A DNA stretch of 64,000 nt, taken from the NCBI GenBank assembly GCA_965219325.1, contig OZ244723.1, positions 1,130,158 through 1,194,157 on the forward strand. Direction: 5' to 3'. Shown in pieces: positions 21,447 through 56,865 of this stretch (its first letter is position 1; the number at the start of each line of letters is the position of its first letter). Position numbers and translations under genes: made by a program. The stretch comes from Dehalococcoidia bacterium. Its GTDB lineage: Bacteria > Chloroflexota > Dehalococcoidia > Lucifugimonadales > UBA2962. Under the pieces are notes generated by a model that saw nothing but the letters and a program-made list of their open reading frames with translations, ran no database searches and was not told the DNA's origin.

Positions 21447-21597
21447 ATGCGAAGGAGCGAGCCGACGTGATCAGGACCCACAGGGGTGAAGGGGGAGAGG
21501 CGATGTGCGGTTAGAGACGGGTCATGAGCGAAAGCAAGGAACGGAAAAGCGATGAAACGCCGGGCGGGGAGACCGCCCGGGGAGAGGAGAACAAGTT

Positions 21598-23893: not shown

Positions 23894-23911
23894 GAGAAGG
23901 AGAACCCCAGA

Positions 23912-26194: not shown

Positions 26195-26241
26195 ACGGAT
26201 GCCGGTCGGCCCCAGGACCGTCCGGAGAGGAGGTGCGAACG

Positions 26242-35300: not shown

Positions 35301-38300
35301 GACGCCGTGTAGGTGACCGTGCCCGAGGCGAAGGCCGGGCTCAGCGTCACCCCCGTGCCCAGCGACAGCCCGCTCAGCGTCGTTGGGCCGGTCGAGAGAG
35401 GTATCGCTTCGGTGCGCTGTTTGCCGTAAACGAGCATCTTCACCACCCAATTCTCGCCACTCCAGTTTGTTCCGTCCCTGGACTTCTGTGACTCATTGGC
35501 CACAAAGATGTTACTGTTCCCATCCTGGTCGTTGCTTGCTGTGTTCCGGAGTCGTATCCAACCGCCACTGAGACGTTGGATTACGATCGCATATCTCCCC
35601 TGTGGTCTGAGCGTCGTTCCTTCCGGCGCCGTGAATGCGTTGTCATGGCCTTCCCTGAACGCCGGTGGATCGCGAAAGTCGAACAGTTTTTCGTCGGGAA
35701 CCGGATCGCCGCCTCCTTCTTGTTTTCCGGTGTAAAGCGACACGATGATTTCGTCCGGGCTGTCCGGTATACCTGAGTCGGCGGATGCAATGTATTCAAG
35801 GGCCAATGCAACGCTGTGCAGTTTGAAGCCGATGAAGCTGTCAGCCCCCTGGATGACATTAAAACTCTGAGCCCACCAGTTATAGTTGTCTTCACCCACC
35901 TTAAAGTTGTCCTGATCACTCTCACTGGTGGTGTAGGTAAGCCGGTCGAGATCGTAGCCGTGGATCGTGAAGACAGGAATCCGCGTCGGGGTTTGCGTGA
36001 CGGAGTCCGGCCACGGGTCGTCGGGGTTGCTTAGATCCTGGTATCGCACGGCTGAGTTAAGGATCCACCAGTTGCTGTCAACGCGGCTTTGACCGTCCGC
36101 GTCAGTGTTCGTTATGTAATATTCCGTGCTGCCCGAGCCATCTGATTCGATGACCACGAAGTAGACCCTATCGTCGTGCAGGTAAAAGGGCTCGGGCGGA
36201 GTGAAGGTGTTGATTTGGTTGTTACCGTCTTTGAATGCCGATGGATTATCGAACTCGAAATATTTATTATTCGGTCGCCAATCATCATCTCCATCATCAT
36301 TACCACCTGGTCTATACCCGTCCCAAAGAGACACCGTAACGGGAACGACCGGCTTGGCGCTAAACATCAAATCGAGCGCGGTGAGCGCGTAGCCGCCAGT
36401 GTCATCGCCAATCTGAAAACCGACAGCGAAGCTGATTGATCCAACGGTGGTCTGCTCGAAGGTAGTGGTTTGCGTAGTGTTGCCCACCATTGCCGCCGCC
36501 GCCGTCGCCCGGTTGTTGATCGTGCCCGTCGCGGTGGTGTCCGTGGTCAGCGTCGCGTTATTCGGGTTTGAAATCGTCAGCGTGAAGGTCTCGGCGCTCT
36601 CGCTCGCGTCGTCCTCCGTCGTCTGGACCTCGATCGTCCCGGTGGCGGTATTGTCGGCCGCCGCGATGGTCAGCGTGCCGCTCTTCGTCGTGAAGTCCAC
36701 GCCCGAGGTGGCGTCGTCTCCGGTCGCCACCGACGTCGCGTAGTCCACCATCACGTCGCGGCCGCTCACCGCCGACAGCGTCACCACGAACTCCACCGCG
36801 TCACCCTCGGTCGCCGCCGCGTTGGCCACCGTCACGGTCGGCGTCGGGTCGTCGTCCTCGATGGTTCCCTTCGCCGTCGGGTCCGTCTCCAGCTTGGCGT
36901 TCGACGACGGGCTCGACAGCGTCACCGTGAAGGTCTCGTCGCCCTCGTCGGTGGCGTCGTTCACCACCGGCACCGTAAACGTTTCCGTCGTGTCGCCGAT
37001 CGCGACGGTCACCGTCCCCGTCTTCATCGACCCGAGGTCCGCCGCGGCCGCCGTGTCGCCGGTCTTGATCGAGGCCGTCCAGGTCGCCGTCACCTCCTCT
37101 GTGGCCGCTTCCGACAGCGTCACCGTGAATTCCACTTCCCCATCGTTCTCGGCGTCCGAGGCATCCGCGACGCTCAGCGTCCGCGGGCGCCGCACACGAA
37201 TCGTGACGGTGTCCCCCGCAGACCAGCTCAGGCCCGACAGACCCCAAGAGTAGAGGCCGGTGGTGCCTTTCGTGGCACCGCTGAATGCGAACGTGGTGGC
37301 GGCGCCGTCGACCGTGAGCACCAGGCCCGCCTTGTCATCGTCGGTGAGGTCGGCGCTGAGCAAGACGTACAGGGTGCCCGTGAGGGTGGTCCCAGTTGGG
37401 ACTTGGATATAAGCGGCACTGATCGTGTAGTCGTTGTCCCCGACCGAGAACATCGTGGCGTCAGGGTAGCCGGCAAGGCCGCCCGCGCTGAGGCCAGCTC
37501 CATCAGCAAAACCGTGTCCGACAAGCATGTCGGCGCTAGACTTGAGCTCTCCCACCGTCACCACGCCGCACCAGATGTCTCCGGTGTTCAGCGTGCATGG
37601 CGGCGTCGTGATGTCACGCACCGACAGCGTGTAGGTGCCCGTCCCCCCGGTGACCCCGCTAACCGCTACCAGGTAGTAGGTGCCGGCCGCGGTCGGCGTG
37701 TAGACGGTCTGGCTGTCGTAGATGTCGTTAGAGGGGTCGACATCGTCATTCTCGGTGCCGTCAATCTCGGTGCCGGATGAGTCGCGGATATTGAGCAGAT
37801 AAGGGTTTTCCAAGGTGCCGCCGCCGCCACCAATGCCCTTCAGGTCGATCTGGTAGGTCTTGCCCGCCTCCAGATCGACGCGGAACCAGTCATAGTCATT
37901 GGCGATGCCGATGTTGCCCGTGGCCGATGCGCCGACCTCGACGCGGCCAGAGGTCGTGTTGTCGGCGGGAAAGTCCGTGTCGGCCTCCGAGGCGCCGTTC
38001 GCGCCCAGGAGGATCACCGACAGCGTGTAGGTGCCTGTAAGATTGTCATTGATTTCGGTCACCACTGGGTAGAAGTCGCCGGACGCGGCCGGGGTGTAGA
38101 TCATCCGGGCGTTGGCGCCCACGCCGCTGTTGTCGTCGCCCTGTTGGCCGTTGTCACCCTGAAGCTGGCTCCCGATATTGTCGTAGAGGCCCAGGTGCGG
38201 GTCCGCCAGGGTGCCCCGGCCGGTGTCCGCGCCCTCCAGATCCAACTGGTATCGCGTGCCCGCCTCCAGTTCCACTTTGAACCGGTCGTAGTCGCCGACC

Positions 38301-40249
38301 GTCCCGATGTTGCCCGTTACTGTGCCGCCCACCTCGACCTCGCCGGTGGTGGTGTTGTCGTTGGGAAAGTCGTCGCGCGTCACGGTCACCGTGTAGGTCT
38401 GCGTCGAGGTGCCGTCCGCGGCCGTCACCTTCACCTTGATGACGGTGTCGCCCACCGACAGCGCCACCTGGAAGTCGGCCGCATTGTCGTCCGCGTCCGC
38501 GAGCGCATTGCCGTCCGCGTCCTGAATTTCGGAATCGGCGCTGGCGTGGTTCTCCGTCACCGTCACTGTCACCTCGTCGACGCTGTTGGCGACCGACGCC
38601 GTGTAGGTGACCGTGCCCGAGGCGAAGGCCGGGCTCAGCGTCACCCCCGGGCCCAGCGACAGCGCGCTCAGCGTCGCGTCCGTCGAGAGCATGGGCGTGA
38701 TGTCACGCACCGACAGCGTGTAGGTGCCCGTGAGGTTGGCAGCACCAGTGGTGGCCCTGAGGTAGTGGGCGCCGGCCGAGGCCGCAGTGTAGACCATCTG
38801 GCTGTTGAGGTCCGTGCCGCTGTCGTCGTCTACGAGAAGGAAGGTTGCGGACCCGTCATAGAGCGACAGGAACGGGTCTACCAAGGTGCCGCGGCCGGAA
38901 TCCGCCCCTTCCAGGTCGAACTGGTAGGTCTTGCCCGCCTCCAGATCGACGCGGAAATAGTCTTTATCCGATGTGCTGGCGATGTTGCCCGTGGCCGAGG
39001 CCCCGACGTCGACGCGGCCGGTGGTGGTGGCGGTGGCGGGGAAGTCCGTGTCGGCCTCCGAGACGCCGTTTGCGCCCAGCACGATCACCGACAGCGTGTA
39101 GGTGCCGGTCGTGGTGGCTGTGCCGGACGCAGCTATGTAGTAGGTGCCGTCCGCCGTGGGCGTGTAGATAACGCGGCCGTTTTTGCCCACACCGCCATCG
39201 TTGCTCCTCGCACCGGATATCGCCTGTCCTCCCGCATCATACAACCCCCAAAGAAACGGATCCGCCAAGTTGCCGCGGCCGGTATCCGCCCCCTCCACGT
39301 CGAACTGGTATCTCGTGTCCGCCTCCAACTCGACGCGGAACCAGTCGACGTCGGCGTCCCTATCGACGTTCCCCGTGACCGAGCCACCGACGTCCACCTC
39401 GCCGGTGGTGGCGGTGCCTTCGGGCAGGTCTTCGCCGTCGCCCTCCGAGACGTTCGCCCGCCCGCCGGGACCGGGCGGCGTGGCATGGCCGGGCGCTCCG
39501 CCGCCGTCCTCCCCGTCCTGGTCGTCGCCTTCGACGGCCTCCGGCGCGGTCGGCGTGTCGATGTGGAACCAGCGGGAGCGCGGGCTCACCCCGTGCTCGT
39601 TGATGGCCTTGATGCGGTAGGTGTAGGTGGTCTCAGCAACCACTGTGTCGTCGGTATAGGTGGTGGCGGCGGTGCCCGTGTCCGCGACCAATTCTCTGAA
39701 CTCGCCCTTTCTGTCGGTATCCCGGTTACGGCGCAGGATCACGTAGCCGGTGATGGTGTCGTCGCCCGGCTCGTCCCAGGTGAGGACCACCTGGTCGTGG
39801 GTCGCCGTGGCGTCCAGGCCCCTGGGCTTGTCGGGCCGCTCGGGGGCCGCCGGTATGTCGATGTGGAACCAGCGGGAGCGCTCGCTCACCCCGTGCTCGT
39901 TGGTCGCCTTGATGCGGTAGGTGTAGGTAGTATTGGCCTTTACGCTGTCGTCGGTATAGGTGGTCGCCGCCGTCCCAGTGTCCGCCACGAGCTCACTGAA
40001 CTCGCCCCCGGTATCGTTCACGCGGACGCGCCGCAGGATCACGTAGCCGGTGATGGTGTCGTCGCCCGGGTCGTCCCAGGTCAGCACCACCGAGTCGTGG
40101 GTCGCCGTGGCGGAAAGGCCCGTGGGCTTGTCGGGCGCCGAGCCCTCCTGGGCCTGCACCGTGGAGAACAGCAGGGCCATCGCCAGGGCCAGGGCCGCTA
40201 TGGCGGCGAACAGGATGGGGAATCGTCGTCTATCGGTGCGAGTCATCAT
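31505..40249 (-). CDS. giant secreted repeat protein (2914 aa): signal peptide, 2 FN3-like domains, 8 PPC-type repeats in 4 pairs, 3 cadherin-like beta-sandwich repeats, Calx-beta-like repeats, unknown domains, C-terminal FN3-like domain
   Basis: N-terminus MMTRTDRRRFPILFAAIAALALAMALLF..VQAQ. FN3-like P.GL.A.A....V.L.WD.P...ITGY...R. PPC-type D.DWFRV.LEAG..YQFD.EG....GTL.DP.L.LYD......TYTLSV. Calx-like LSVADASDAENDGEVEFTVTLS. Confidence 0.9.
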   Translation of the reverse strand: MMTRTDRRRFPILFAAIAALALAMALLFSTVQAQEGSAPDKPTGLSATATHDSVVLTWDDPGDDTITGYVILRRVRVNDTGGEFSELVADTGTAATTYTDDSVKANTTYTYRIKATNEHGVSERSRWFHIDIPAAPERPDKPRGLDATATHDQVVLTWDEPGDDTITGYVILRRNRDTDRKGEFRELVADTGTAATTYTDDTVVAETTYTYRIKAINEHGVSPRSRWFHIDTPTAPEAVEGDDQDGEDGGGAPGHATPPGPGGRANVSEGDGEDLPEGTATTGEVDVGGSVTGNVDRDADVDWFRVELEADTRYQFDVEGADTGRGNLADPFLWGLYDAGGQAISGARSNDGGVGKNGRVIYTPTADGTYYIAASGTATTTGTYTLSVIVLGANGVSEADTDFPATATTTGRVDVGASATGNIASTSDKDYFRVDLEAGKTYQFDLEGADSGRGTLVDPFLSLYDGSATFLLVDDDSGTDLNSQMVYTAASAGAHYLRATTGAANLTGTYTLSVRDITPMLSTDATLSALSLGPGVTLSPAFASGTVTYTASVANSVDEVTVTVTENHASADSEIQDADGNALADADDNAADFQVALSVGDTVIKVKVTAADGTSTQTYTVTVTRDDFPNDNTTTGEVEVGGTVTGNIGTVGDYDRFKVELEAGTRYQLDLEGADTGRGTLADPHLGLYDNIGSQLQGDNGQQGDDNSGVGANARMIYTPAASGDFYPVVTEINDNLTGTYTLSVILLGANGASEADTDFPADNTTSGRVEVGASATGNIGIANDYDWFRVDLEAGKTYQIDLKGIGGGGGTLENPYLLNIRDSSGTEIDGTENDDVDPSNDIYDSQTVYTPTAAGTYYLVAVSGVTGGTGTYTLSVRDITTPPCTLNTGDIWCGVVTVGELKSSADMLVGHGFADGAGLSAGGLAGYPDATMFSVGDNDYTISAAYIQVPTGTTLTGTLYVLLSADLTDDDKAGLVLTVDGAATTFAFSGATKGTTGLYSWGLSGLSWSAGDTVTIRVRRPRTLSVADASDAENDGEVEFTVTLSEAATEEVTATWTASIKTGDTAAAADLGSMKTGTVTVAIGDTTETFTVPVVNDATDEGDETFTVTLSSPSSNAKLETDPTAKGTIEDDDPTPTVTVANAAATEGDAVEFVVTLSAVSGRDVMVDYATSVATGDDATSGVDFTTKSGTLTIAAADNTATGTIEVQTTEDDASESAETFTLTISNPNNATLTTDTTATGTINNRATAAAAMVGNTTQTTTFEQTTVGSISFAVGFQIGDDTGGYALTALDLMFSAKPVVPVTVSLWDGYRPGGNDDGDDDWRPNNKYFEFDNPSAFKDGNNQINTFTPPEPFYLHDDRVYFVVIESDGSGSTEYYITNTDADGQSRVDSNWWILNSAVRYQDLSNPDDPWPDSVTQTPTRIPVFTIHGYDLDRLTYTTSESDQDNFKVGEDNYNWWAQSFNVIQGADSFIGFKLHSVALALEYIASADSGIPDSPDEIIVSLYTGKQEGGGDPVPDEKLFDFRDPPAFREGHDNAFTAPEGTTLRPQGRYAIVIQRLSGGWIRLRNTASNDQDGNSNIFVANESQKSRDGTNWSGENWVVKMLVYGKQRTEAIPLSTGPTTLSGLSLGTGVTLSPAFASGTVTYTASVANSVDEVTVTPTTNHASATVEILDTDDNELDDADDMEDDFQVALSVGDTVIKVKVTAEDSTATQTYTVTVTRDDFPNDNTTTGEVEVGGSVTGAIKPSTDKDWFKVELEAGTRYQFDVEGADTGRGTLPDPAASLYATSLISGNDDAGVGKNARIINTPTATGTYYVVADSATSDTGTYTVSVIVLGANGASEADTDFPADNTTSGRVEVGASATGNIASTSDKDWFRVDLEAGKTYQFDLEGSPTGRGSLGDPFLQIFDASGSNKLAEDDDISTANLNSQLVFTPTAAGAYYLVVETAAPTTGTYTLSVREITQPPPCTLNTGDIWCGAVTVAEIKTSPADALVGHGFADGAGLSAGSLAGNPDETVFSVGDNDYTIQGAYVQVPTGTTPTGTLYVLLTADLTDDDKAGLLLTVDGAATPFEFSGATKSTTGLYSWGLSGLTWSAGDTVTIRVRPRTLSVADASDAENDGEVEFTVTLSEAAATAVTATWTASIEAGDTAVAADLGATKTGTVTVAIGDTTGTFEVPVVNDATEEGDETFTVTLSSPSSNAKLETDPTATGTIEDDDATALSTDATLSGLSLGMGVTLSPAFASGTAIYTASVANSVDEVTVTPTTNHASATVEILDTDDNELDDADDMEDDFQVALEVGDTVIKVKVTAEDDTSTQTYTVTVTRAAEMTPDDPPDDSGNVPDSVTDLLTNLGQANNLNFAIIVGDFENAQGFTTGSDRYGYFLASISLDVDTVPKTPADVTVSLWSATSDSPPTPDAPVATLTHSTDTWATGVNTFNAPGGTVLDPGTTYFVVQSYSGARAHLTLRVTASGSADDDSTGWSVAGARLTRSHTDLGDWSGESGEYTKFSVSGAAVPAQGVAEGATDLPTNVSEPDGEDLPADTTTTGEVEVGGSVTGNVDRDADVDWFAVELKKGKRYQFDVEGADTGRGNLADPFLWGLYDAGGQAISDARSNDGGVGKNGRVIYTPTADGTYYIAAAGTATMTGTYTLSVIVLGANGASEADTDFPRDTTTTGRVEVGASATGNIDPGEDLDGFRVNLEAGKRYRFDLEGADTGRGSQADPILALYGDSFNVSHYISEDDDGGEGLNSRLTYTATATGIYHLEVAGLDPGTYTLSVREILLAVAVPPGGLGPSEIPGAVRNVSVSYSPVSGIGGQIVSWDAPDETGTGAQWITEFRIYGSASEGCGGYLLDEYEVEHPGSTTPPEHPDGTPTGFKYFKIVYVGPVKFGVAAVNELGEGPCVEGPDPPDNS

Positions 40250-40338: not shown

Positions 40339-41418
40339 CGGTCCTTCCGGAAGACGGCTGCAAGCTCCCTCCTACGGGGATGTCCGGGGCCGTCCGATAT
40401 CCCCAGGCAGGACGGTATGCGGAACGCAAGCTCACGCGGTCAGCCCGTCCCGGAGTCCTGTGGGAGGCCGCCGCTCTGCTTGTCGGAGGGCTGGGGCGGC
40501 CTCCCCCAGCTTTATCCATGTGTGCGGGCTTTCTTGTTGCCCTTCCTGCGGGCGGGGTCCGCGCGGGTACGCGTACACCCGCGCGGACCTTCCTCTCCTC
40601 CCGACGCCACATGCCATCAGGAATTATCCGGCGGATCGGGCCCTTCCACGCATGGCCCCTCACCGAGTTCGTTGACCGCCGCCACACCGAATTTGACGGG
40701 TCCCACATAGACGATCTTGAAGTATTTGAAACCCGTCGGGGTGCCGTCGGGGTGCTCTGGTGGCGTGGTGGATCCAGGGTGCTCCACCTCGTATTCGTCC
40801 AGCAGGTAGCCGCCGCAGCCCTCGCTGGCTGAGCCGTAGATGCGGAACTCCGTGATCCATTGCGCGCCGGTTCCGGTCTCGTCCGGCGCGTCCCACGACA
40901 CGATTTGCCCACCAATGCCGCTGACGGGCGAGTAGGACACAGACACATTGCGGACCGCGCCCGGGATCTCCGAGGGGCCCAGACCACCGGGCGGAACGGC
41001 AACTGCCAGCAAAATTTCACGCACCGACAGCGTGTAGGTGCCTGGGTCCAAGCCCGCTACTTCCAGGTGGTAGATGCCGGTCGCGGTCGCTGTGTAGGTC
41101 AGTCGGCTGTTAAGTCCCTCGCCGCCGTCGTCGTCCTCACTGATGTAGTCGGAGACGTTGAAGGAGTCGCCGTAGAGCGCCAGGATCGGGTCCGCCTGGG
41201 AGCCGCGGCCGGTGTCCGCGCCCTCCAGGTCGAACCGGTATCGCTTGCCCGCCTCCAGATCGACACGGAACCCGTCCAAATCCTCGCCAGGGTCGATGTT
41301 GCCCGTGGCCGAGGCCCCGACCTCGACCCGGCCGGTGGTGGTGGTGTCTCTGGGAAAGTCCGTGTCGGCCTCCGAGGCGCCGTTCGCGCCCAGCACGATC
41401 ACCGACAGCGTGTAGGTG
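40309..41418. repeat. about 1.1-kb near-identical direct repeat, copy 2
   Basis: See 31197..32306. Confidence 0.85.
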
Positions 41419-44400
41419 CCCGTCGTGCTGTCTGCGCCGGCCACAGCTATGTAGTAGGTGCCTTCCGCGTCGGGCGTGTTGATGACCCGGCCGTTCTTCC
41501 CCACACCGCCGTCGTTACTCCTCGCACCGGAGACCGCCTGTCCTCCCGCATCCTGCAACCCCCAAAGATGCGGATCCGCCAAGTTGCCTCGGCCGGTATC
41601 CGCCCCCTCCACGTCGAACTGGTATCGCTTGCCCTTCTTCAGCTCGACCGCGAACCAGTCGACGTCGAGAGCTGGGGCGATTTCGCCCGTGACCGAACCG
41701 CCGACCTCAACTCTACCGGTGGTGGTGATGCCTTCGGGCAGGTCTTCGCCGTCGGGCTCCGAGACGTTGGTGGAATCGGCTGGCGGGTCGGCGGAATCGT
41801 CGGGCGGCGGCGTGATGTCGCGCACCGACAGCGTGTAGGTGCCGGTGTCGGTTTCATCAAAATCTGCCACACGTAGGTAGTACGTGCCAGCCGTGGTCGG
41901 AGTGAATATCCCCCGGCTGTTCGCACCAATACCGCTGTTGACATCATCCAGAAGGTTGTCCTCGGACTCGTCGTAGAGTGTTAGCGCCGGGTCCGCCAGG
42001 GTACCGCGGCCGGTCGGCGCCCCCTCCAGGTCGATCTGGTAGCGCGTGCCCGCCTCCAGGACGACGCGGAAATAGTCTCGGTCGGCGAAGGAGCCGATGT
42101 TGCCCGTGACCGAGGCCCCGACGTCGACCCGGCCGGTGGTGGCGGTGGTGGCGGGCAGGTCCGTGTCGGCCTCCGAGACGCCGTTCGCGCCCAGCACGAT
42201 CACCGACAGCGTGTAGGTGCCTGTCACGCCGTTCGAGGAGGCGACTACGTAGTGAGAGCCGTCCGCGGGCGCCGTGAAGATCCTCCGGGCGTTGTTCCCT
42301 ATGCCGCTGTCAAGCGCGTCGGTGACTACATTGCCCAACGCATCGCGCATCCTGCTAAGAACCGGGTCTGTCAGGGTGCCCCGGTTGGTGTCCGCGCCCT
42401 CCAGGTCGATCTGGTATCGCTTGTCCTTCTTCAGATCGACGCGGAACCAGTCAATGTCGAAGACGCTGTCCATGTTGCCCGTGACCGAGCCGCCGACGTC
42501 GACCTGGCCGGTGGTGGTGTTGTCGGAGGGAAAGTCGTCGGGCGTCGTCGACCCCGACAGACGGACCGTGACCGTGGTCGTCGACGACCAGTCCAGGCCC
42601 GTATTCGCCCAAGAGTAGAGGCCGGTGCTCAATCTACTGGCATCGCTGAGCGCGCGGTCGGTAGTGACGCCGTCGATCTTGAAAACCAGGTTCTCCTTGT
42701 CATCGTCGGAGAGATCGGCGGTGAGCAATAAGAACAGGGAGCCATCGTTGTTGCCCCCTGGGGCTCCGACATAAAGGCCCCTGATCGTGTAGTCGTTGTC
42801 CCCGACCGAGAACATCGTGTCGCCGGGGTTGCCGACAAGACCGCCCGCGCTGAGACTACTGGTATCCGCAAACCCGTGTGAGACAAGCACGTCGGCGCTA
42901 GTCTTGAGCTCTCCCACCGTCACCACGCCGCACCAGAGGTCGCCGATGTTCAGCGTGCACGGTGGCGGGATCTCACGCACCGACAGCGTGTAGGTGCCCG
43001 TCCCCCCGGTCTCTGTCGTACTCGGTTCCAAGGTGTAGGTGCCGGTCGTGGTCGGCGTGTAGACTATCTGACTGTTTTTGTTCGTGCTGCTGATGTTCTC
43101 GTTGAACCCCACGACCGTTACGAATCGGTAGAGTTTTAGGTACGGATTCTCCAGGGTGCCGCGGCCGTTATGCGATCCTTCCAGGTCGAACTGGTAGGTC
43201 TTGCCCGCCTCCAGAGCGACATTGAACAAGTCCGTATCGCCGTTGAACCCGATCGTCCCCGTGACCGAGGCCCCGACGTCGACAGTGCTAACGTTGGTGT
43301 TGGAAAAGTCCGTGTCGGCCTCCGAGGCGCCGTTCGCGCCCAGCACGATCACCGACAGCGTGTAGGTGCCCGTCACGCCGTTCGAGGCGGCGACTACGTA
43401 GTGAGTGCCGTCCGCGGTCGCCGTGAAGATCGTCCGGGCGTTGTTCCCCACGCCGCTGTCATCGTTCTGCGTGCCCGTGATCGTATTGCCCCCCGCATCA
43501 CGCACTGCGTTGATAGTCGGGTCCGACACTGTGCCGCGGCCGGTAGGCGCACCCTCCAGGTCGATCTGGTATCGCGTGGTCTCCTCCAGCTCGACGAGGA
43601 ACCAGTCCGCGTCGCCGACGGACTCGATGTTGCCCGTGACCGAGCCGCCGATGTCGACCTTGCCGGTGGTGGTGGTGCCGGCGGGAAAGTCGTCGGGCGG
43701 CGACAGACGAACCGTAACCGTGGTCGTCGCAGACCAGTCCAGGCCCGACAGACCCCAAGAGTAGAGGCCGGTGGTGCCTTTCGTGGCGCCGCTGAACGCG
43801 AACGTGAGGGTGGTGTCGTCGACCGTGAGCACCAGGCCCGCCTTGTCATCCTCGCTGAGATCGGCGCTGAGCAAGACGTACAGGGTGCCCGTGACGGTGG
43901 ACCCAGTTGGGACTTGGATATAAGCGGCACTGATCGTGTAGTCGTTGTCCCCGACCGAGAACATCGTGTCGTCAGGGTAGCCGGCAAGGCTGCCCGCGCT
44001 GAGGCCAGCTCCATCAGCAAAACCGTGTGCGACAAGCACGTCGGCGTTAGTCTTGACCTCTGCCACCGTCACCACGCCGCACCAGACGTCGCCCGTGTTC
44101 AGCGTACACGGCGGCGGCGTGATGTCACGCACCGACAGCGTGTAGGTGCCGGCCGCGCTATTCGAGGCTGCCACCAGGTAGTAGACGCCGGCCGCGGTCG
44201 GCGTGAAGGTTATCTGGCTTTCGTAGATGTCGTTGTCCGGATCGACGTCGTCATTCTCGGTGCCGCTAATCGCGTTGCCGGATGAGTTGCGGATATTGAG
44301 CAGATAAGGGTCTTCCAAGGTGCCGCCGCCGCTATCTTCGCCCTTCTGGTCGATCTGGTAGGTCTTGCCCGCCTCCAGATCGACCTTGAACCAGTCCGCG

Positions 44401-45662
44401 TCGGTATCGGGGTCGATGTTGCCCGTGACCGAGCCGCCCACGTCCACCTCGCCGATGGTGGCGGTGGTGGCGGGAAAGTCCGTGTCGGCCTCCGAGGCGC
44501 CGTTCGCGCCCAGCAGGATCACCGACAGCGTGTAGGTGCCGGTATCTGACCCATTGGCATTCTGTGCCCGCACGTAGTAGGCGCCGGCCGCGGTCGGCGT
44601 GTAAATCCGCCGGGCGTTTTTGCCCACGCCCTCGTCGTTGCTCAAAGAACCGACAACTGCGTTGCTATAGTAGAGAGCCATCCTCGGGTCCGGTAGGGTA
44701 CCGCGGCTGGTATCCGCACCTTCAAGATCGATCTGGTATCTCGTGCCCGCCTCCAGCACGACCTTGAACCAGTCCCCGTCCGTCCCGGTTCCGATGTTGC
44801 CCGTGACCGAGCCGCCGACGTCCACCTCGCCGGTGGTGGTGTCGTCGGTCGGCAGGTCTTCGCCGTCGGGCTCGGAGACGTTGGCCCGCTTGCCGGGACC
44901 GCCGGGCGCGCCGTCGTCGTCCTCCCCGTCCTGGTCGTCGCCTTCGACGGCCTCCGGCGCGGCCGGCGTGTCGATGTGGAACCAGCGGGAGCGCTCGCTC
45001 ACACCGTGCTCGTTGATCGCCTTGATGCGGTAGGTGTAGGTAGTATTGGCCTGTACGCTGTCGTCGGTGTAGGTGGTCGCCGCCGCCCCCGTGTCCGCCA
45101 CCAGCACACTGAACTCGCCCCCGGTATCGTTCACGCGGACGCGCCGCAGGATGACGTAGCCGGTGATGGTGTCGTCGTCAGGGTCGTCCCAGGTGAGGAC
45201 CACCTGGTCGTGGGTCGCCGTGGCGTCCAGGCCCGTGGGCTTGTCGGGCCGCTCGGGGGCCGCCGGAATGTCGATGTGGGACCAGCGCGAGCGTTCGCTC
45301 ACCCCGTGCTCGTTGATCGCCTTGATGCGGTAGGTGTAGGTAGTGTTGGCCTTTACGGTAGCGTCGGTGTAGGTGGTCGCCGCTGTGCCCGTGTCCGCCA
45401 CGAGCTCACTGAACTCGCCCCCGGTATTGTTCACGCGCACGCGCCGCAGGATGACGTAGCCGGTGATGCTGGCGTCGCCCGGGTCGTCCCAGGTGAGGAC
45501 CACCTGGTCGTGGGTCGCCGTGGCGGAGAGGCCCGTGGGCTTGTCGGGCACCGAGCCCTCCTGGGCCTGGACCGGAGAGAACAGCAGGGTCATCGCCAGG
45601 GCCAGCGCCGCTATGGCGGCAATCAGGATGGGGAATCGTCGTCTATCGGTGCGAGTCATCAT
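40617..45662 (-). CDS. giant secreted repeat protein (1681 aa): signal peptide, 2 FN3-like domains, 8 PPC-type repeats in 4 pairs, two copies of the CTLNxGDxWCG domain, C-terminal FN3-like domain
   Basis: The first roughly 270 aa and last roughly 270 aa are highly similar or near-identical to giant protein 1. It has the same RBS context, AAGGAGGAACCATGATG. Confidence 0.9.
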   Translation of the reverse strand: MMTRTDRRRFPILIAAIAALALAMTLLFSPVQAQEGSVPDKPTGLSATATHDQVVLTWDDPGDASITGYVILRRVRVNNTGGEFSELVADTGTAATTYTDATVKANTTYTYRIKAINEHGVSERSRWSHIDIPAAPERPDKPTGLDATATHDQVVLTWDDPDDDTITGYVILRRVRVNDTGGEFSVLVADTGAAATTYTDDSVQANTTYTYRIKAINEHGVSERSRWFHIDTPAAPEAVEGDDQDGEDDDGAPGGPGKRANVSEPDGEDLPTDDTTTGEVDVGGSVTGNIGTGTDGDWFKVVLEAGTRYQIDLEGADTSRGTLPDPRMALYYSNAVVGSLSNDEGVGKNARRIYTPTAAGAYYVRAQNANGSDTGTYTLSVILLGANGASEADTDFPATTATIGEVDVGGSVTGNIDPDTDADWFKVDLEAGKTYQIDQKGEDSGGGTLEDPYLLNIRNSSGNAISGTENDDVDPDNDIYESQITFTPTAAGVYYLVAASNSAAGTYTLSVRDITPPPCTLNTGDVWCGVVTVAEVKTNADVLVAHGFADGAGLSAGSLAGYPDDTMFSVGDNDYTISAAYIQVPTGSTVTGTLYVLLSADLSEDDKAGLVLTVDDTTLTFAFSGATKGTTGLYSWGLSGLDWSATTTVTVRLSPPDDFPAGTTTTGKVDIGGSVTGNIESVGDADWFLVELEETTRYQIDLEGAPTGRGTVSDPTINAVRDAGGNTITGTQNDDSGVGNNARTIFTATADGTHYVVAASNGVTGTYTLSVIVLGANGASEADTDFSNTNVSTVDVGASVTGTIGFNGDTDLFNVALEAGKTYQFDLEGSHNGRGTLENPYLKLYRFVTVVGFNENISSTNKNSQIVYTPTTTGTYTLEPSTTETGGTGTYTLSVREIPPPCTLNIGDLWCGVVTVGELKTSADVLVSHGFADTSSLSAGGLVGNPGDTMFSVGDNDYTIRGLYVGAPGGNNDGSLFLLLTADLSDDDKENLVFKIDGVTTDRALSDASRLSTGLYSWANTGLDWSSTTTVTVRLSGSTTPDDFPSDNTTTGQVDVGGSVTGNMDSVFDIDWFRVDLKKDKRYQIDLEGADTNRGTLTDPVLSRMRDALGNVVTDALDSGIGNNARRIFTAPADGSHYVVASSNGVTGTYTLSVIVLGANGVSEADTDLPATTATTGRVDVGASVTGNIGSFADRDYFRVVLEAGTRYQIDLEGAPTGRGTLADPALTLYDESEDNLLDDVNSGIGANSRGIFTPTTAGTYYLRVADFDETDTGTYTLSVRDITPPPDDSADPPADSTNVSEPDGEDLPEGITTTGRVEVGGSVTGEIAPALDVDWFAVELKKGKRYQFDVEGADTGRGNLADPHLWGLQDAGGQAVSGARSNDGGVGKNGRVINTPDAEGTYYIAVAGADSTTGTYTLSVIVLGANGASEADTDFPRDTTTTGRVEVGASATGNIDPGEDLDGFRVDLEAGKRYRFDLEGADTGRGSQADPILALYGDSFNVSDYISEDDDGGEGLNSRLTYTATATGIYHLEVAGLDPGTYTLSVREILLAVAVPPGGLGPSEIPGAVRNVSVSYSPVSGIGGQIVSWDAPDETGTGAQWITEFRIYGSASEGCGGYLLDEYEVEHPGSTTPPEHPDGTPTGFKYFKIVYVGPVKFGVAAVNELGEGPCVEGPDPPDNS

Positions 45663-45923
45663 GGTTCCTCCTTGTGCTTGTGCGGGGATACGGGACGCAG
45701 CCCGTCCCGTCCCCAGGCGTCAGCGGACGCGGAGGACGCGGGCGTCGGGCGTTGCATGGTCGAAGGCTGTTTCGGGTGAGTGCGGGACGTGCGAAGCCCG
45801 CCGCAAGGCGTCCTTCAAGGACACTGAGAACTTCGGGCGCACGCAGAGAGAGCGGCGATGGGAGAGGATCGGGCCTGCCGGTATGAGCCGGAGGCGGCGA
45901 GGGGGCCAGAGCGGAGGGAAATC

Positions 45924-45936
45924 GGGGGGGGGGGGG
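45924..45936. repeat. homopolymeric G13 (C13 on the minus strand) tract in the divergent intergenic region
   Basis: Read directly. Lies 262 nt upstream of the giant gene 2 ATG and 324 nt upstream of the kinase-regulator ATG. Confidence 0.9.
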
Positions 45937-46139
45937 TGAACGTCTGTGCTAGACCGCGACGGAGGACGGACCGGGTCGCGGAGACCACGTCAACACGGGC
46001 CGCTGCGACCAGTTTCTCCACTCCGTCTATCGGCCTGTCGAATCCCACGTTAAACCCTCCCCGCCGTACGTTGGGGCAAAGTGCCCATCAGTATGACGGA
46101 CAAAGTTGTGGAAAGTCAGTGTAATATCTGCATTTTAGC

Positions 46140-46158
46140 GACCAATCGAGGACCAATC
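46140..46158 (+). promoter_or_regulatory. direct repeat GACCAATC-N3-GACCAATC (11-bp phasing), candidate OmpR/PhoB-type response-regulator box
   Basis: Two perfect 8-mers at 46140-46147 and 46151-46158, 4 nt upstream of a -35-like hexamer. Confidence 0.4.
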
Positions 46159-46162
46159 CTGC

Positions 46163-46192
46163 TTGTGTAATGTGCCGTATGGCCTCTATAAT
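46163..46192 (+). promoter_or_regulatory. sigma-70-like promoter candidate for 46260..48641
   Basis: TTGTGT (46163-46168), an 18-nt spacer, then TATAAT (46187-46192), about 68 nt upstream of the ATG. Confidence 0.4.
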
Positions 46193-46259
46193 GGGCGCGC
46201 CGGGCCGTGTGGGACTAGGGGGGCCGCGGGCCGTCCATGCCTGAACGGAGGTCGAGAGG

Positions 46260-48641
46260 ATGAAGAACGCCGGGGAGCTTGAGCGGGAGAACGAGGCCCT
46301 TCGCGACCGCCTCTCCAGGCTGAGCCAGGCCAGCCTGCGCATCAACGAGAGCCTGGACTTCGATGGCGTCCTTCAGGAGGTGGTGGACAGCGCCCGCGCC
46401 ATCACGGACGCCCGCTTCGGAGGGCTCACCACCGTGGACGGCTCGGGGCAGCTGGAGAGTTTCCTGAGCTCCGGCCTGACGCCCGAGCAACACGAGGCGC
46501 TGTACACCCCGGAGGGTCCGGCCATCTACGACCTCTTCCTGAATATGAAAGAGCCGCTGCGAGTCGACGACCTCACCGCCTACGTCAAGTCACTCGGCTA
46601 CCCCGGCAACTCGGCGTATCTGAAGAGCTTTCTGGGGACGCCGATCCTGCATCGCGGCGTGCCCGTTGGCCTGTGCTGTGTCGCCAACAAAGAGGGTGGG
46701 GGCGGGTTCACCCCCGAGGACGAGGCGACCCTGGTGATGTTCGCCTCCCAGGCGGCGCTGGTCATCGCCAACGCCCGCAGGCACCGGGAGGAGCAGCGGG
46801 CCAGGACCGACCTGGAGACCCTGGTGAACACCACACCTGTGGGCGTCTTGGTGTTCGACGCCAAGACGGGCGGCGTGACGTCGGTCAACCGGGAGGCCAG
46901 GAGGATCGTCAGCGACCTGTGTGCGCCCGGCGGCTCGGCGGAGCAGCTGCTGGAGGTGCTGACCTTCCGGCGGTTCGACGGGAGGGATGTCTCTCTGGAG
47001 GAGTTCCCCCTGGCCCTGGCGCTGAGCACGGGGGAGACGGTGCGAGCGGAGGAGATCGTCCTGCAGGGTCCCGAGGGTCGCAGCGTCACCACCCTGATCA
47101 ACGCCACGCCCATCTTCTCCGAGGAGGGCGAGGTCGAGTCGGTGGTCGTGACCCTACAGGACATGACGCCGATGGAGGAGCTTGAGCGGCTGCGGGCCGA
47201 GTTCCTGGGCATGGTGAGCCACGAGTTGCGGACGCCCCTGGCCGCCGTCAAGGGATCGGTGGATACCCTTCTGGAATCCGCCTCCGACCTGGACTCTGCC
47301 GAGATGACGCAGTTCTTCAGGATCATCCGCGACCAGTCGGAGAACATGCGTTACCTGATAGGCGACCTGCTGGACGTGGCCCGCATCGAGACGGGCACCC
47401 TGCCGGTTTCCCCCGAACCCGTAGAGGCGGGCGTCCTGGTGGACGAGGCCAGGAGCAGGTTCCAGAGCGGGGGCGGAAGGAGCAACCTCGTTATCGACCT
47501 GCCGCCGGATCTGCCCCGGGTCATGGCGGACCGGCGGCGCATCGTCCAGGCACTGGGCAACCTGCTCTCCAACGCGGCCCACCACTCGAACGAACTGTCC
47601 CCCATCCGGGTGGCCGCAGTGCGGGATGGCGTCCACGTCGCCTTCTCGGTGGCGGACGACGGCGTGGGCGTGCCCGCCGAGCGGCTGCCGCACCTGTTCC
47701 GCAAGTTCTCCCGGCTCGACGGCGAGGAGCGGGGACGTGAGATAGCCGGGTCGGGCCTGGGACTCGCCATCTGCAAGGGGATCGTGGAGGCCCACGGCGG
47801 CCGCATTCGGGCCGAGAGCGACGGGCTTGGTCTGGGAAGCCGGTTCACCTTCACCGTTCCGGCGGTGGAGGAGGCCGTCGCCCTTCCCCCTCCACGGTCA
47901 CGCCGGCGCAGGAGCAAGACCGCGGAGCGGCCCCGCGTCCTGTGCGTGGACGACGACCCGCAGACGCTCCGGTACGTGCGGGACGCCCTCACCAAGGCGG
48001 GCTACACGCCCGTCGTGACCGGAGACCCGGAGGAGGTCTCCCGGCTCATGGCGGAGGAAGCGCCCCGCCTGGTCCTGCTGGACATGATGCTGCCGGGCAG
48101 CGACGGCATGGAGCTGATGAAGGACATCCGGGAAGTCTCCGACGTGCCGGTCATCTTCCTGTCCGTCAACGGCCAGGAGGAGGTCGTCGCCCGGGCCTTC
48201 GACATGGGAGCGGCCGACTACGTGGTCAAGCCCTTCTCGCCGACGGAGCTTGCGGCCAGGATCAGGGCGGCCCTGCGCAAGCTGCGCAAGCGCGCGGCGC
48301 CGGAGCTGGCCCAGCCCTCCGAGCCCTACGTGCGTGGAGACCTGACCATCGACTATGCCCAGCGCAGGGTTACGGTGGCCGGCCGCCCGGTCGAGCTCAC
48401 CTACACCGAGTACCGGATGCTGGTCGAGCTTTCGGTGAACGCGGGGCGGGCGCTGACCCACGTGCACCTGCTGCAACGGGTCTGGGGACCGGACAAGGGC
48501 GAAGACACCGGGCCGGTGAGGAACATCGTCAAGAGGCTGCGCCGCAAGCTGGGCGAGGACGCGTCCAACCCGGCCTTCATCTTCGCCGTGCCCAGGGTCG
48601 GCTATCGGATGGAGAAGGGGGAGGGGCAGGAGGATGCGTGA
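46260..48641 (+). CDS. single-polypeptide two-component system: coiled coil, GAF, PAS, HisKA, HATPase_c, REC, OmpR/PhoB-type winged-helix DNA-binding domain
   Basis: H-box FLGMVSHELRTPL, N-box LGNLLSNAAHH, G-boxes VADDGVGV and GSGLGLAICKGIVEAHGG. REC: VLCVDDD...LVLLDMMLPGSDG...KPF. wHTH: ELTYTEYRMLVEL...VRNIVKRLRRKL...VGYRM. No TM segment seen. Confidence 0.9.
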   Translation: MKNAGELERENEALRDRLSRLSQASLRINESLDFDGVLQEVVDSARAITDARFGGLTTVDGSGQLESFLSSGLTPEQHEALYTPEGPAIYDLFLNMKEPLRVDDLTAYVKSLGYPGNSAYLKSFLGTPILHRGVPVGLCCVANKEGGGGFTPEDEATLVMFASQAALVIANARRHREEQRARTDLETLVNTTPVGVLVFDAKTGGVTSVNREARRIVSDLCAPGGSAEQLLEVLTFRRFDGRDVSLEEFPLALALSTGETVRAEEIVLQGPEGRSVTTLINATPIFSEEGEVESVVVTLQDMTPMEELERLRAEFLGMVSHELRTPLAAVKGSVDTLLESASDLDSAEMTQFFRIIRDQSENMRYLIGDLLDVARIETGTLPVSPEPVEAGVLVDEARSRFQSGGGRSNLVIDLPPDLPRVMADRRRIVQALGNLLSNAAHHSNELSPIRVAAVRDGVHVAFSVADDGVGVPAERLPHLFRKFSRLDGEERGREIAGSGLGLAICKGIVEAHGGRIRAESDGLGLGSRFTFTVPAVEEAVALPPPRSRRRRSKTAERPRVLCVDDDPQTLRYVRDALTKAGYTPVVTGDPEEVSRLMAEEAPRLVLLDMMLPGSDGMELMKDIREVSDVPVIFLSVNGQEEVVARAFDMGAADYVVKPFSPTELAARIRAALRKLRKRAAPELAQPSEPYVRGDLTIDYAQRRVTVAGRPVELTYTEYRMLVELSVNAGRALTHVHLLQRVWGPDKGEDTGPVRNIVKRLRRKLGEDASNPAFIFAVPRVGYRMEKGEGQEDA

Positions 48642-49099: not shown

Positions 49100-49390
49100 A
49101 TGCCACAGTTCACTACGACAACTCTGGAAGAAGCGCAGAGGCTCACGGGCGGCGGAAAGAGGGAGAAGGAACTGGCCGCATACCTTGAGAGCGTCAACGG
49201 CCTGTCCGCTGGAACTGCGGGCAAAGTGGTCCCGTCGGAGGGCGAGAGCCTATCGACGGTGAGGCGCAGGCTGGGCGACGCTGTGCGCAGGTCGGGTCGG
49301 GACATCGAGATAAGACGAACGGATGACGCCGTCCATTTCTGGATCAAGGAGGGGCGTCGCCGGGGTCGCCCGAGGTCCCGTCGCGAATAG
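49100..49390 (+). CDS. small AT-hook-like DNA-binding protein (96 aa), copy 1
   Basis: ATG after GGAGGAA. C-terminus RRRGRPRSRRE (RGRP core). About 90% identical to 51508..51798. Confidence 0.6.
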   Translation: MPQFTTTTLEEAQRLTGGGKREKELAAYLESVNGLSAGTAGKVVPSEGESLSTVRRRLGDAVRRSGRDIEIRRTDDAVHFWIKEGRRRGRPRSRRE

Positions 49391-49398
49391 AGCCGCCA

Positions 49399-49915
49399 AC
49401 TGCCAAGGAACCTTGCGCACACGACGGCGGTAGACGGTTTCGTCGCGGCGCTGGCCGTGCAGGCCCGATCGACCGGCTGGGATGTGGTGCAAGTCGACCC
49501 TCCCACCCGTGCGTCCAGGTACTTTCGGCACGGGGGGATCCTGCGGTCCGTGCACCCGGACGCGTTCTGCATCCTGCGCAGGGGAGCCGTGACGTGGCCG
49601 TTCTTCCTGGAGTGGGAGCGGCGAGCGGTACGGCCGGTCACCATGGCGGCGCGGCTCGCGCCCTACGTGCGTTACTACTCGACCCGCCGTCCCATCGACG
49701 ACCACGGCGTGCGGCCCACGGTTATGATCGTGTTCGACGACGACCTGGCCGCCGCGGGCTTTCTTCGGGTGGCCCGCCGGGAGATGGAGAGGGCCCGGGC
49801 TGTGGTACCCCTCCTTGTCTCGGACAGGGGAACGGTGCACAGGCTGGGGCCGCTGGGACCGGCGTGGCGCAAGGCTGGGGAGTGGTCGTCCTGCCATGCT
49901 CTACCCGCGGCCTGA
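49399..49915 (+). pseudogene. 3' fragment (last roughly 170 codons) of a second, diverged Replic_Relax relaxase gene
   Basis: ..RNLAHTTAVDGFVAALAVQARSTGWDVVQVDPPTRASRYF... is collinear with residues about 378-549 of 28830..30479. It has no N-terminal part and starts directly after the stop of 49100..49390. Confidence 0.75.
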
Positions 49916-55251: not shown

Positions 55252-56865
55252 TTGACGGAAAAGGGAAAAGCGAACGCGGAGCCGAATCGCGCGGCGGTCT
55301 ACGCCCGGGTGTCGGACAAGAGCCAGGCTGCCGAGGACAGGACCTCCATCTCGGAGCAGGTCGCGGACATGGAGGCGTACTGCGAGCGCAGGGGGCTGAC
55401 CATCGTCGCGCGCTACCAGGAGGTGGGCAGGGGCTGGTCGAAGAAGCGTCCTGAGTTCCAGAGGATGCTCGAGGAAGCCCGCCAGGGGCGATTCGACACG
55501 ATCGTTTGCTGGAAGTCGGACCGTCTAAGTCGGGGAGTATACCCGGCCGCGGTGCTCATGGAGGTGGTCGAGGCCTACGGTATCACCATCGAGTCGGTGA
55601 TGGACTCCATGGACATGAAGTACTTCGGGCTGATGGCAGCGATCGGCAAGATCGAGATCGACAACTTTCGCGAGCGTGCGTCGATGGGCAAGCGGGGAGC
55701 GGCCAAGCGGGGGCGCATACCGATCGGGGGGTTGCCCTACGGATATCGCAACGGGGAGGACGGGAAGGCCGAGGTGGAGGAGACGGAGGCGGCCGTCGTC
55801 GGGCGCATCTTTCGCCAGTACGTGCATGAGGGCGTGGGTACGCGAACGATCGCCCGGATGCTGGAGGATGACGGAGTACGTCCTCACCAGGGCGGGAGGC
55901 GGTGGCACCAGTCCCATGTCTATCGCATCCTGGGGAACGAGACCTACAGGGGAGTGTGGAACTACGGCCAGACGCGTACGACGAGGACAGATCAGGGCAA
56001 GAAGGTTCGTAATCGGCCGCGCGAGACCTGGATATCGGTGGCGGTGCCGCCACTGGTGGACGAGGAGACATGGGACCGCGCCCAGAGGCTCAAGAAGGAA
56101 CGCCTGAGGGGCTCAAGGCGGAACACGAAGGTCTTCTATCTTCTACAGCACATGATGAGGTGCGCCGAGTGCGGGACGCTGCTTGGGGCCAGGTCCACCT
56201 GGACCACGACCAGAACGCGCAACGGCAAAAGGCAGCGCTACAGGATGCCCAGTCCCCGCCGGTACTACTGCTGCTACGGCTCGGCTCGACGTGTGACCTG
56301 TCGTGAGCGATCACACATCAGGGCGGAGCAGTTGGAGGGATTGGTGTGGCGCGAGGTGAGCGAGGTGCTGAGAAACCCCGAACTGATCCTGTCCGGCATC
56401 GATGTGGTTGATTCGGTGGCGGGCAACGGGGTGGCTGAGAAGGCGGTCAGCGTAGAGCGTGAGCTGCGGACGGTCCAGAGACAGGAGGACCGGGCGATCG
56501 ACCTGTATGTGGCGGGCAGGATAGACGAGCGGCAGTTCGAGCGGCAGCGTGGGCGGATCACCGAAAGGCTTGATGTCCTGCGGACGAAGCTGGAGCATAT
56601 CCGCGTCCAGGAGGCAACCGCCGCCGACAGGCGGCTGGCGGCGGAGAACATCATCGCCTGGATGGATAAGATCGGGAATGACCTGGACGAGCTTGCTCCC
56701 GAGGAGCGCAGAGAGATCCTGATGACGATCGTTGAGGGGATCACCGTGGACCGGCACAACAGGGTGGATATCGCCCTGGCCGTGCCGACCGGGGAGGCGT
56801 TGTCGATTGATTCTCAGTCATCGACATGTCCGGCTATTCGTTCACGCCCGACGAGGCCACCCTAA
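55252..56865 (+). CDS. large serine recombinase (integrase of the element)
   Basis: TTG start after GGAGG. Resolvase-type N-terminus AAVYARVSDKSQ...ICWKSDRLSRG, a recombinase domain, a Cys-rich zinc-ribbon region (CAECG...CCYG) and a coiled-coil tail. Confidence 0.9.
   Translation: MTEKGKANAEPNRAAVYARVSDKSQAAEDRTSISEQVADMEAYCERRGLTIVARYQEVGRGWSKKRPEFQRMLEEARQGRFDTIVCWKSDRLSRGVYPAAVLMEVVEAYGITIESVMDSMDMKYFGLMAAIGKIEIDNFRERASMGKRGAAKRGRIPIGGLPYGYRNGEDGKAEVEETEAAVVGRIFRQYVHEGVGTRTIARMLEDDGVRPHQGGRRWHQSHVYRILGNETYRGVWNYGQTRTTRTDQGKKVRNRPRETWISVAVPPLVDEETWDRAQRLKKERLRGSRRNTKVFYLLQHMMRCAECGTLLGARSTWTTTRTRNGKRQRYRMPSPRRYYCCYGSARRVTCRERSHIRAEQLEGLVWREVSEVLRNPELILSGIDVVDSVAGNGVAEKAVSVERELRTVQRQEDRAIDLYVAGRIDERQFERQRGRITERLDVLRTKLEHIRVQEATAADRRLAAENIIAWMDKIGNDLDELAPEERREILMTIVEGITVDRHNRVDIALAVPTGEALSIDSQSSTCPAIRSRPTRPP

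Follow-up and report, generated by a model that had tools for sequence, protein, structure and literature searches.

Regulator gene and predicted protein

The window analysed here is a stretch of 64,000 nucleotides from a Dehalococcoidia bacterium (GenBank assembly GCA_965219325.1, contig OZ244723.1, positions 1,130,158 to 1,194,157 of the forward strand). At 46260..48641 on the plus strand it carries a gene for a fused sensor kinase and response regulator of 793 amino acids (aa), with the domain order GAF-PAS-HisKA-HATPase_c-REC-Trans_reg_C, referred to below as the regulator. A 597-bp intergenic region (45663..46259) separates it from two giant genes on the minus strand. The nearer one encodes 1681 aa (40617..45662) and is the presumed target; the second encodes 2914 aa (31505..40249). 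This divergent layout is as described in the original prediction, which had been made from the letters of the DNA. Judged by sequence comparison, regulator, intergenic region and giant gene form a conserved module that is present in multiple copies.

The open reading frame (ORF) of the regulator is preceded by a GGAGG ribosome-binding site at 46247-46251 with a spacing of 8 nt to the ATG, and it is not extendable upstream because of an in-frame TGA stop at 46242-46244. The GC content by codon position is 0.70/0.45/0.91 (genome GC ~65%), which identifies the ORF as a real gene, and the codon bias is even along its whole length. The coordinates are those of the gene as first proposed. The full fused architecture was found in at least 120 clusters at 78-96% identity in a search of 5.8 billion clustered proteins. 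An exhaustive HMMER scan over 1.84 billion 50%-identity representatives gave more than 100 full-length matches among the best 150, down to ~38-45% identity. A sequencing or assembly frameshift joining a kinase gene to a regulator gene was also considered, long-read assemblies of metagenome-assembled genomes (MAGs) being able to carry indels. Nothing was found in support of such an artefact, and against it stand the uninterrupted ORF, seen in 54 genome loci and in close clusters that stem from many assemblies, together with the uniform codon bias. Its probability is negligible, and this reading was rejected.

All six Pfam domains score above their gathering cut-offs and follow the predicted order. 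They are the GAF sensor domain (aa 32-169; 46353..46766), the PAS domain (aa 184-303; 46809..47168), the HisKA or dimerisation and histidine phosphotransfer (DHp) domain (aa 312-379; 47193..47396), the HATPase_c catalytic domain with N, G1, F and G2 boxes (aa 424-535; 47529..47864), the OmpR-type receiver Response_reg (REC; aa 560-669; 47937..48266) and the OmpR/PhoB-type winged helix-turn-helix (wHTH) Trans_reg_C (aa 708-784; 48381..48611), all on the plus strand. HisKA scores 60.2 bits against a cut-off of 26.9, HATPase_c and Response_reg score 91.2 bits each, and Trans_reg_C scores 60.3 bits against 26.2 and covers profile positions 1-77 of 77. The recognition helix of the wHTH is GPVRNIVKRLRRKL (48510-48551, plus strand). 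Kinase and receiver are joined by a flexible, Pro/Arg-rich linker of 24 residues (aa 536-559; 47865..47936, plus strand).

The catalytic residues are all present on alignment, with no loss of His or Asp. The phospho-acceptor H321 (codon 47220-47222) lies within HELRTPL in the DHp helical hairpin, modelled as helices 303-339 and 346-377. The ATP-binding boxes are intact (N box N434/N438, G1 D466xGxG, F480, G2 G497xGxG), as are the receiver residues (acidic pocket D564/D565, phospho-Asp D608 with codon 48081-48083, S635, and K657 with codon 48228-48230). Averaged over 19 residues, Kyte-Doolittle hydropathy peaks at 1.33. A transmembrane segment is therefore not expected, and the protein is predicted to be soluble and cytoplasmic, as had been proposed. 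An AlphaFold2 model built from a 43-sequence alignment has a mean predicted local distance difference test (pLDDT) score of 85, with all domains confident, and begins with a helix followed by the GAF domain. Disorder is confined to the ATP lid (484-495), the kinase-receiver linker (540-554, pLDDT < 50) and the receiver-wHTH linker (680-684). The predicted template modelling score (pTM) is 0.48, so the placement of the domains relative to one another is undefined.

In a search of the PDB, residues 299-535 matched HK853-type kinases and residues 557-786 matched KdpE, BaeR, MtrA and RegX3; no solved chain with kinase, receiver and wHTH together was found there. The REC and wHTH part aligns end-to-end with models and structures of MtrA, RpaB, PhoB and KdpE. 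The NCBIfam models PhoR, WalK, MtrA, PhoB and KdpE match far below their equivalog cut-offs, and the regulator is therefore not an orthologue of any named system. Pfam gave no HTH_18 match in the regulator and no Hpt domain in the regulator or its annotated neighbours. On its residues, the protein is predicted to be a genuine, catalytically intact and soluble two-component system in one polypeptide.

Distribution and variability of the regulator family

A scan of one genome per species yielded the 54 loci, nearly all of them labelled as Dehalococcoidia/Chloroflexota MAGs. Up to five or six copies occur per genome, and several pairs of the close clusters share one multi-megabase contig; CBDCJA010000002.1, for example, carries L006, L007 (two copies), L009, L033 and L039. 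A second copy in the genome of the window itself (P0086) is 81% identical. Pairs of copies within ~20 kb, each with its own divergent secreted-protein gene, were seen at L056, L007, L025/L030 and L017/L026. In none of 72,556 plasmid records does a single locus span 80% or more of the regulator; the best plasmid matches are ordinary adjacent gene pairs of the KdpD/KdpE type. One plasmid, NZ_CP129381.1 of Rhizobium sp. SSA_523, gave a single uninterrupted tblastn piece (516359-517744; query residues 307-784) that runs from the kinase core to the wHTH. It may represent an isolated case in which kinase and regulator fused independently in a cultured bacterium. The fusion had been called uncommon. 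This holds for plasmids of cultured bacteria and for solved structures, and fails for Dehalococcoidia MAGs, with their many family members and several copies per genome; the fusion, seldom met in cultured replicons, is a large lineage-specific expansion in Dehalococcoidia. A literature search gave nothing relevant on OmpR-type kinase-regulator fusions or on this family.

To our knowledge, fusion of a kinase to a DNA-binding regulator is well studied only in the hybrid two-component systems (HTCS) of Bacteroides. Like these (e.g. BT4124; PMC11253607), the regulator combines kinase, receiver and DNA-binding output in one polypeptide, occurs as many paralogues per genome, each beside the locus it presumably controls, and may be insulated by the high local concentration that tethering brings. 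HTCS proteins span the membrane, sense glycans through a periplasmic domain, have an AraC/XylS (HTH_18) output and regulate polysaccharide-utilisation loci. The regulator, in contrast, is predicted to be soluble, senses through GAF and PAS domains, ends in an OmpR/PhoB winged helix, has giant secreted fn3/PPC genes as its partners and resides on an element in Chloroflexota that resembles an integrative and conjugative element (ICE). As it has neither a transmembrane periplasmic sensor nor an AraC output, it counts as an analogue of the HTCS group and stands outside the group itself. The family is a solution independent of Bacteroides HTCS: soluble, OmpR-type and greatly expanded in an uncultured lineage.

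Soluble GAF/PAS sensing coupled to HisKA or a related kinase is also found in DosS/DosT of Mycobacterium and in cytoplasmic Dehalococcoides kinases. Such kinases phosphorylate a separate regulator, whereas the putative phosphorylation target of the window protein is tethered. We know of no hypervariable GAF cassette or mobile-element context described for kinases of this kind. The HisKA core is closest to HK853 and the REC and wHTH part is closest to KdpE, BaeR and MtrA, as in OmpR/PhoB pairs. KdpD/KdpE, MtrB/MtrA and PhoR/PhoB, however, are two separate proteins, the kinase usually in the membrane, and the regulator is one fused ORF.

In hybrid kinases of phosphorelays (CckA, ArcB, TorS, RcsC; PDB 6qrj) the receiver also follows the catalytic domain in the same chain. 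These have an intermediary receiver without an output and pass through an Hpt step, unlike the regulator with its OmpR-type receiver and DNA-binding domain. The protein might still work as a conventional hybrid kinase in a multi-step relay, or in a network of cross-talking paralogues, with no closed circuit; its receiver would then hand phosphate on to other proteins or take it from paralogous kinases. Several paralogues per genome do have near-identical transmitter and receiver parts, and relatives with a dead kinase that keep D608 would need a phosphate donor. On the other side, neither regulator nor annotated neighbours contain an Hpt domain, the receiver has its own output domain and is not of the intermediary type, and an OmpR-type Rec profile failed to retrieve kinases' C-terminal Rec domains (PMC9981736). 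A relay of this sort is regarded as very improbable.

The most variable part of the protein is the GAF core (aa 41-150; 46380-46709, plus strand), which appears in the family alignment as a hypervariable cassette of discrete types. Among 114 clusters at least 78% identical overall, these residues average 41-58% identity to the window protein, and the rest of the protein 85-100%. The GAF cores fall into about five discrete types, 30-60% identical to one another. For 470 protein pairs, identity is below 60% in the GAF core and 95% or more over the rest. Alignable signal at the nucleotide level is lost over 46488-46705. The pattern has the appearance of cassette-like sensor swapping on a fixed chassis. 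A correspondence of GAF type with giant-gene type was considered and rejected: type-1 GAF stands with MMTRTD-type giant genes in the window and L037 and with MTNIN-type giant genes in L001, L021 and L031.

Variation of another kind concerns the kinase. In a sample of 43 diverse full-length representatives (from P0132-P0272, alignment A2) HisKA, Response_reg and Trans_reg_C are present throughout, and some distant members have extra N-terminal PAS, GAF, MEDS or HAMP domains. The phospho-acceptor His is kept in 23 of the 43 and lost in 20 (~45%); nearly all of the latter also lack intact N, G1 and G2 boxes and keep REC and wHTH. D608 persists in 36 of the representatives and K657 in 41, and R754 and R761 of the wHTH are invariant in all 43. 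This points to repeated evolution of pseudo-kinase forms in the family. With ~45% lacking His, a fused protein of this family need not be a phosphorelay complete in itself, and the insulated intramolecular circuit of the original prediction stays putative.

The His-less forms raise the question of a phosphorylation-independent, one-component-like regulator, in which the kinase core would serve mainly for dimerisation and signalling, as a scaffold that brings two winged helices into position, and a GAF ligand would directly gate DNA binding. Dimerisation can be promoted simply by tethering DNA-binding domains to a kinase that is a dimer (PMC11253607), and the many representatives with degenerate kinase boxes that retain REC and wHTH fit such a scaffold. 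The window protein, however, falls in the fully intact class, and its close subfamilies also have every catalytic residue of kinase and receiver, which argues for maintained phosphotransfer. For the window protein the scaffold is considered improbable. With near-identical transmitter and output parts, swapped GAF types and many relatives without His, the family offers a natural experiment on specificity and insulation.

Intergenic region and divergent giant genes

The 597-bp intergenic region (45663..46259) is shared by about 30 paralogous or orthologous loci at 72-99% nucleotide identity, and the conservation reaches the start codon of the giant gene. An inferred -10 element of the regulator promoter, TATAAT (46187..46192, plus strand), is invariant in all type-A loci (the subfamily of the window). 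The -35 position is the poor match TTGTGT, and because of it a consensus scan rejects the promoter. The combination fits an activator-dependent promoter. A scan of 45500-49200 for sigma-70 promoters and intrinsic terminators on both strands returned no sites. A possible divergent promoter on the minus strand, CTGACT-N18-CATACT near 46090-46125, also fails the scan and is not relied on.

Upstream of the -10 element lie phased direct repeats on the plus strand. A distal tandem pair, GTGGAAAGTCA and GTGTAATATCT (46108..46129), has 11-bp phasing and is a candidate wHTH site. It is followed by tandem GACCAATC repeats with 11-bp spacing (46140..46161), of which one to three units are present depending on the locus, and by a proximal box, TTGTGTAAT (46163..46171), which overlaps the -35 position and, whatever the subtype, is found 21-24 nt upstream of the -10. 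The stretch 46108-46172 can be read as six consecutive units of ~11 bp: GTGGAAAGTCA, GTGTAATATCT, GCATTTTAGC, GACCAATCGAG, GACCAATCCTG and CTTGTGTAATG. Phased direct repeats beside a weak -35 are the binding site expected of OmpR/PhoB regulators, and the arrangement resembles a pho box in this respect.

The plan is kept in distant promoter subtypes that have diverged elsewhere, with a GTGnnn box 21-24 nt upstream of the -10. In types B, C and D a tandem pair 11 nt apart is found 33 and 44 nt upstream of the proximal box; in type A the distal pair is displaced by one or two extra ACCAAT units of ~11 bp. Across subfamilies A-D the box sequence mostly covaries with the recognition helix of the wHTH. 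Type A (helix GPVRNIVKRLRRKL) has the boxes GTGGAAA and GTGTAAT, type B (helix RRVRTAAKQLRRKL) TGTGAGG, TGTGAGA and TGTGAGT, type C (helix RPMRTAVSSLRRKL) CGTGAAG and CGTGAAA, and type D (helix RPMRTVIRSLRRKL) GTATGAT, CGTGAGA and GTATGAG. A compact device that leads from sensor to promoter in one gene, with its own putative operator, also has appeal for synthetic biology.

The 1681-aa giant protein has a signal peptide (MMTRTDRRRFPIL...), two fn3 domains and at least six PPC domains; the 2914-aa protein contains fn3, Cadherin-like, Calx-beta and PPC domains. The N-terminus of the former (45662-45560, minus strand) reads MMTRTDRRRFPILIAAIAALALA...VQAQE and carries an RRxF motif, twin-arginine-like, and signal peptides with RRxF are kept across many giant-gene paralogues. 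Of 47 full-length loci, 21 have homologues of the giant genes upstream of the regulator on the opposite strand and 4 have them downstream (sign test ~5e-4, the loci not being independent). An ORF of 1,200 to more than 3,100 aa on the opposite strand starts 500-650 bp from the regulator in at least 20 loci, and the N-terminus common to these ORFs is MxTRTDRRRFPILLA or MTNINRRRFPILLA. In L056 two divergent regulator-giant pairs occur within 19 kb, according to independent gene calls and precomputed Pfam domains. The suggested synteny with PPC-repeat genes in other genomes is borne out by these loci, and roughly half of all loci are without it. Several loci have a lipoprotein-like secreted protein of 500-990 aa at the position of the giant gene.

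From these observations a GAF/PAS-gated kinase is proposed that phosphorylates its tethered OmpR-type regulator and so controls its own promoter and, most likely, the giant gene or genes; we hold this to be probable. A cytoplasmic signal would be received by the N-terminal GAF (and PAS) sensor, which would switch the dimeric HisKA/HATPase core to autophosphorylation at H321. The phosphoryl group would then cross the flexible linker to D608 in the same chain or the same dimer. The activated receiver and winged helix would bind the 11-bp-phased direct repeats, at about -92 to -28 from the inferred start of the regulator's own promoter. Binding in the divergent intergenic region would raise transcription of the regulator and most likely also activate the divergent giant secreted fn3/PPC/cadherin-like gene(s). 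The transfer of phosphate, the binding to DNA, the assignment of the operator, the effect on the giant genes and the cytoplasmic signal are all points that we infer from sequence. Control of the giant genes had been suggested in the original prediction from their position. It now has strong comparative support from the divergent synteny, the conserved ~600-bp region and the phased repeats, chiefly from the recurrent, fixed-geometry pairing with the regulator; the control itself stays putative.

Several points weigh against this proposal. No sigma-70-like promoter passes the scan of 45500-49200 on either strand, so that no convincing one could be assigned to the giant gene, and roughly half of the loci have no adjacent giant gene. 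The whole intergenic region is conserved, so conservation alone cannot single out the boxes. Two families of 11-bp-phased repeats, the GTGnAA type and the ACCAAT type, compete as putative operator, which might serve the giant-gene promoter as well. In L009 and L015 promoter and N-terminus are of type A but the recognition helix is of type B; these mosaic paralogues indicate recombination between subfamilies and break the correlation of helix and box. Phosphotransfer does not appear universal in the family, ~45% of which lack His and the ATP-binding boxes, and with several paralogues per genome cross-talk or heterodimers may occur.

Part of this evidence suits a different account, that the regulator controls only itself or other functions of a mobile element (transfer, maintenance) and that the giant genes merely travel with it. 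The module lies among conjugation genes in the window and in L055, the clearest repeats adjoin the regulator's own -10, no giant-gene promoter was definable in the scan, and some loci have no giant gene. However, the composite box GTGKAA-N5-GTGTAAT and the proximal TGTGTAAT were found nowhere else in the 64-kb window, the upstream regions of the type IV secretion system (T4SS) included. The divergent pairing with the same 600-bp spacer also recurs where no ICE genes are seen within 10 kb, and the intergenic conservation runs to the giant gene's start codon. Co-travel alone is judged unlikely. The tight pairing with the regulator offers a testable regulatory link for giant fn3/cadherin-like/Calx-beta/PPC proteins.

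The intergenic region also contains a poly-G tract of 13 G (45924..45936). Tracts of 8-24 G occupy the equivalent place in 27 of 49 loci, distant subfamilies included. Its persistence suggests a function. It may be a switch for phase variation by slipped-strand mispairing, and part of the length differences may be homopolymer error of long reads. An Rfam search of 45400-46500 detected no known riboswitch or leader; a match to EBV sisRNA-2 (24.5 bits against a gathering score of 41.8) is spurious. RNAalifold was applied to the giant-gene leader (minus strand, 14 loci) and gave a covariation of -0.22 kcal/mol with compensatory changes in 4 of 42 pairs, so a conserved RNA structure is not supported. 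In the same leader (45651-45920, minus strand) a CCCTCC just past the poly-C tract might base-pair with the GGAGG ribosome-binding site of the giant gene ~270 nt away. The sole compensatory change in this pairing comes from two closely related loci and gives a weak hint.

The two giant genes share a direct repeat of 1.5 kb, 95.7% identical (31141-32661 and 40253-41773). It comprises their 3' ends and downstream sequence common to both, which identifies the two genes as a tandem duplication. Giant genes at other loci are built of mosaic segments of 95-97% identity. This mosaic structure suggests recombination among giant genes.

Mobile-element context

Conjugation genes occupy 20310..30479 on the plus strand. 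They encode TrbL/VirB6 (20310-21446), a pilin-like ORF, orf565, a VirB4/TraG-like P-loop ATPase (23912-26194), a TrwB-like coupling protein (TrwB_AAD_bind; 25807-28833) and a Replic_Relax protein (28830-30479). A helicase gene (6307-8700) and genes for a DUF6094 methyltransferase, Rad52 and a primase are also present in the window. The conjugation genes are followed by a small XRE-type HTH gene (30484..30894, minus strand, start uncertain), which lies downstream of the giant genes and recurs in related loci, and then by the two giant genes, the intergenic region and the regulator. On the far side of the regulator lie a Replic_Relax fragment, a GC-poor patch that encodes a PIN protein, genes for an IrrE/M78 peptidase and a PAPS_reduct protein, and that of a large serine recombinase (55252..56865, plus strand), possibly the integrase of the element. 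ARAGORN found no tRNA in the window that could be an integration target. The module appears to be cargo of the ICE-like conjugative element in the window, and the ICE-like gene set around it upholds the earlier suggestion of mobile cargo.

Direct repeats of 519 bp, 87.5% identical and both on the plus strand, bracket the stretch from 30.5 to 49.4 kb with the HTH gene, the giant genes and the regulator. The left copy (29954..30472) is the 3' end of the Replic_Relax gene and the right copy (49390..49908) is the Replic_Relax C-terminal fragment; they flank the module and not the whole element. This suggests that the module was inserted or exchanged by recombination, or that elements accreted in tandem. 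Nucleotide similarity to paralogous loci ends at the stop codon of the regulator (~48,625-48,720). The second copy in the same genome, P0086, has a like neighbourhood, with a T4SS operon that is 83% identical over 7.6 kb but inverted with respect to the module. About a dozen other loci also have ICE-type genes within 10 kb. This context suggests a route by which the cassette could move between genomes.

Two homologues lie on contigs with a label from another phylum. L014 (68% identity) is on the 3.7-Mb contig CBDCMW010000002.1, labelled Candidatus Aldehydirespirator, Acidimicrobiia (Actinomycetota), and its intergenic region is 85% identical to that of the window over 313 nt. L050 (61% identity) is also on a contig labelled Acidimicrobiia. 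Both may reflect cross-phylum transfer or a taxonomic mislabel. The fn3, cadherin-like and Calx-beta domain classes are reported to be enriched in sponge symbionts, and they are discussed as sponge-symbiont features together with the family of Candidatus Aldehydirespirator (PMC11706023). A sponge- or host-associated habitat is presumed for the MAG of the window.

Taken further, the module might be a self-contained mobile cassette for the expression of surface proteins. A fixed chassis of kinase, receiver and wHTH with a swappable GAF (~5 types) would be combined with a poly-G stochastic switch and recombining giant adhesins of eukaryotic-like type, and would ride conjugative elements between Chloroflexota and Acidimicrobiia in apparently sponge-associated communities. 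This wider picture is put forward tentatively, as a conjecture that may well prove wrong. If true, it would give a first regulatory handle on the eukaryotic-like surface proteins of symbionts or, alternatively, a handle on the control of mating adhesins by monoderm ICEs. The domain biochemistry of the regulator is predictable, and it is the combination of features that stands out. Lineage expansion, swappable sensor, fixed operator geometry, poly-G tract, giant surface proteins and ICE carriage together make the module worth following up.

A further direct repeat, of 318 bp and 87.4% identical, lies at 49080-49397 and 51488-51805. It represents a duplicated small ORF (96 and 102 aa) without a Pfam match, one copy on each side of the GC-poor PIN-domain gene.

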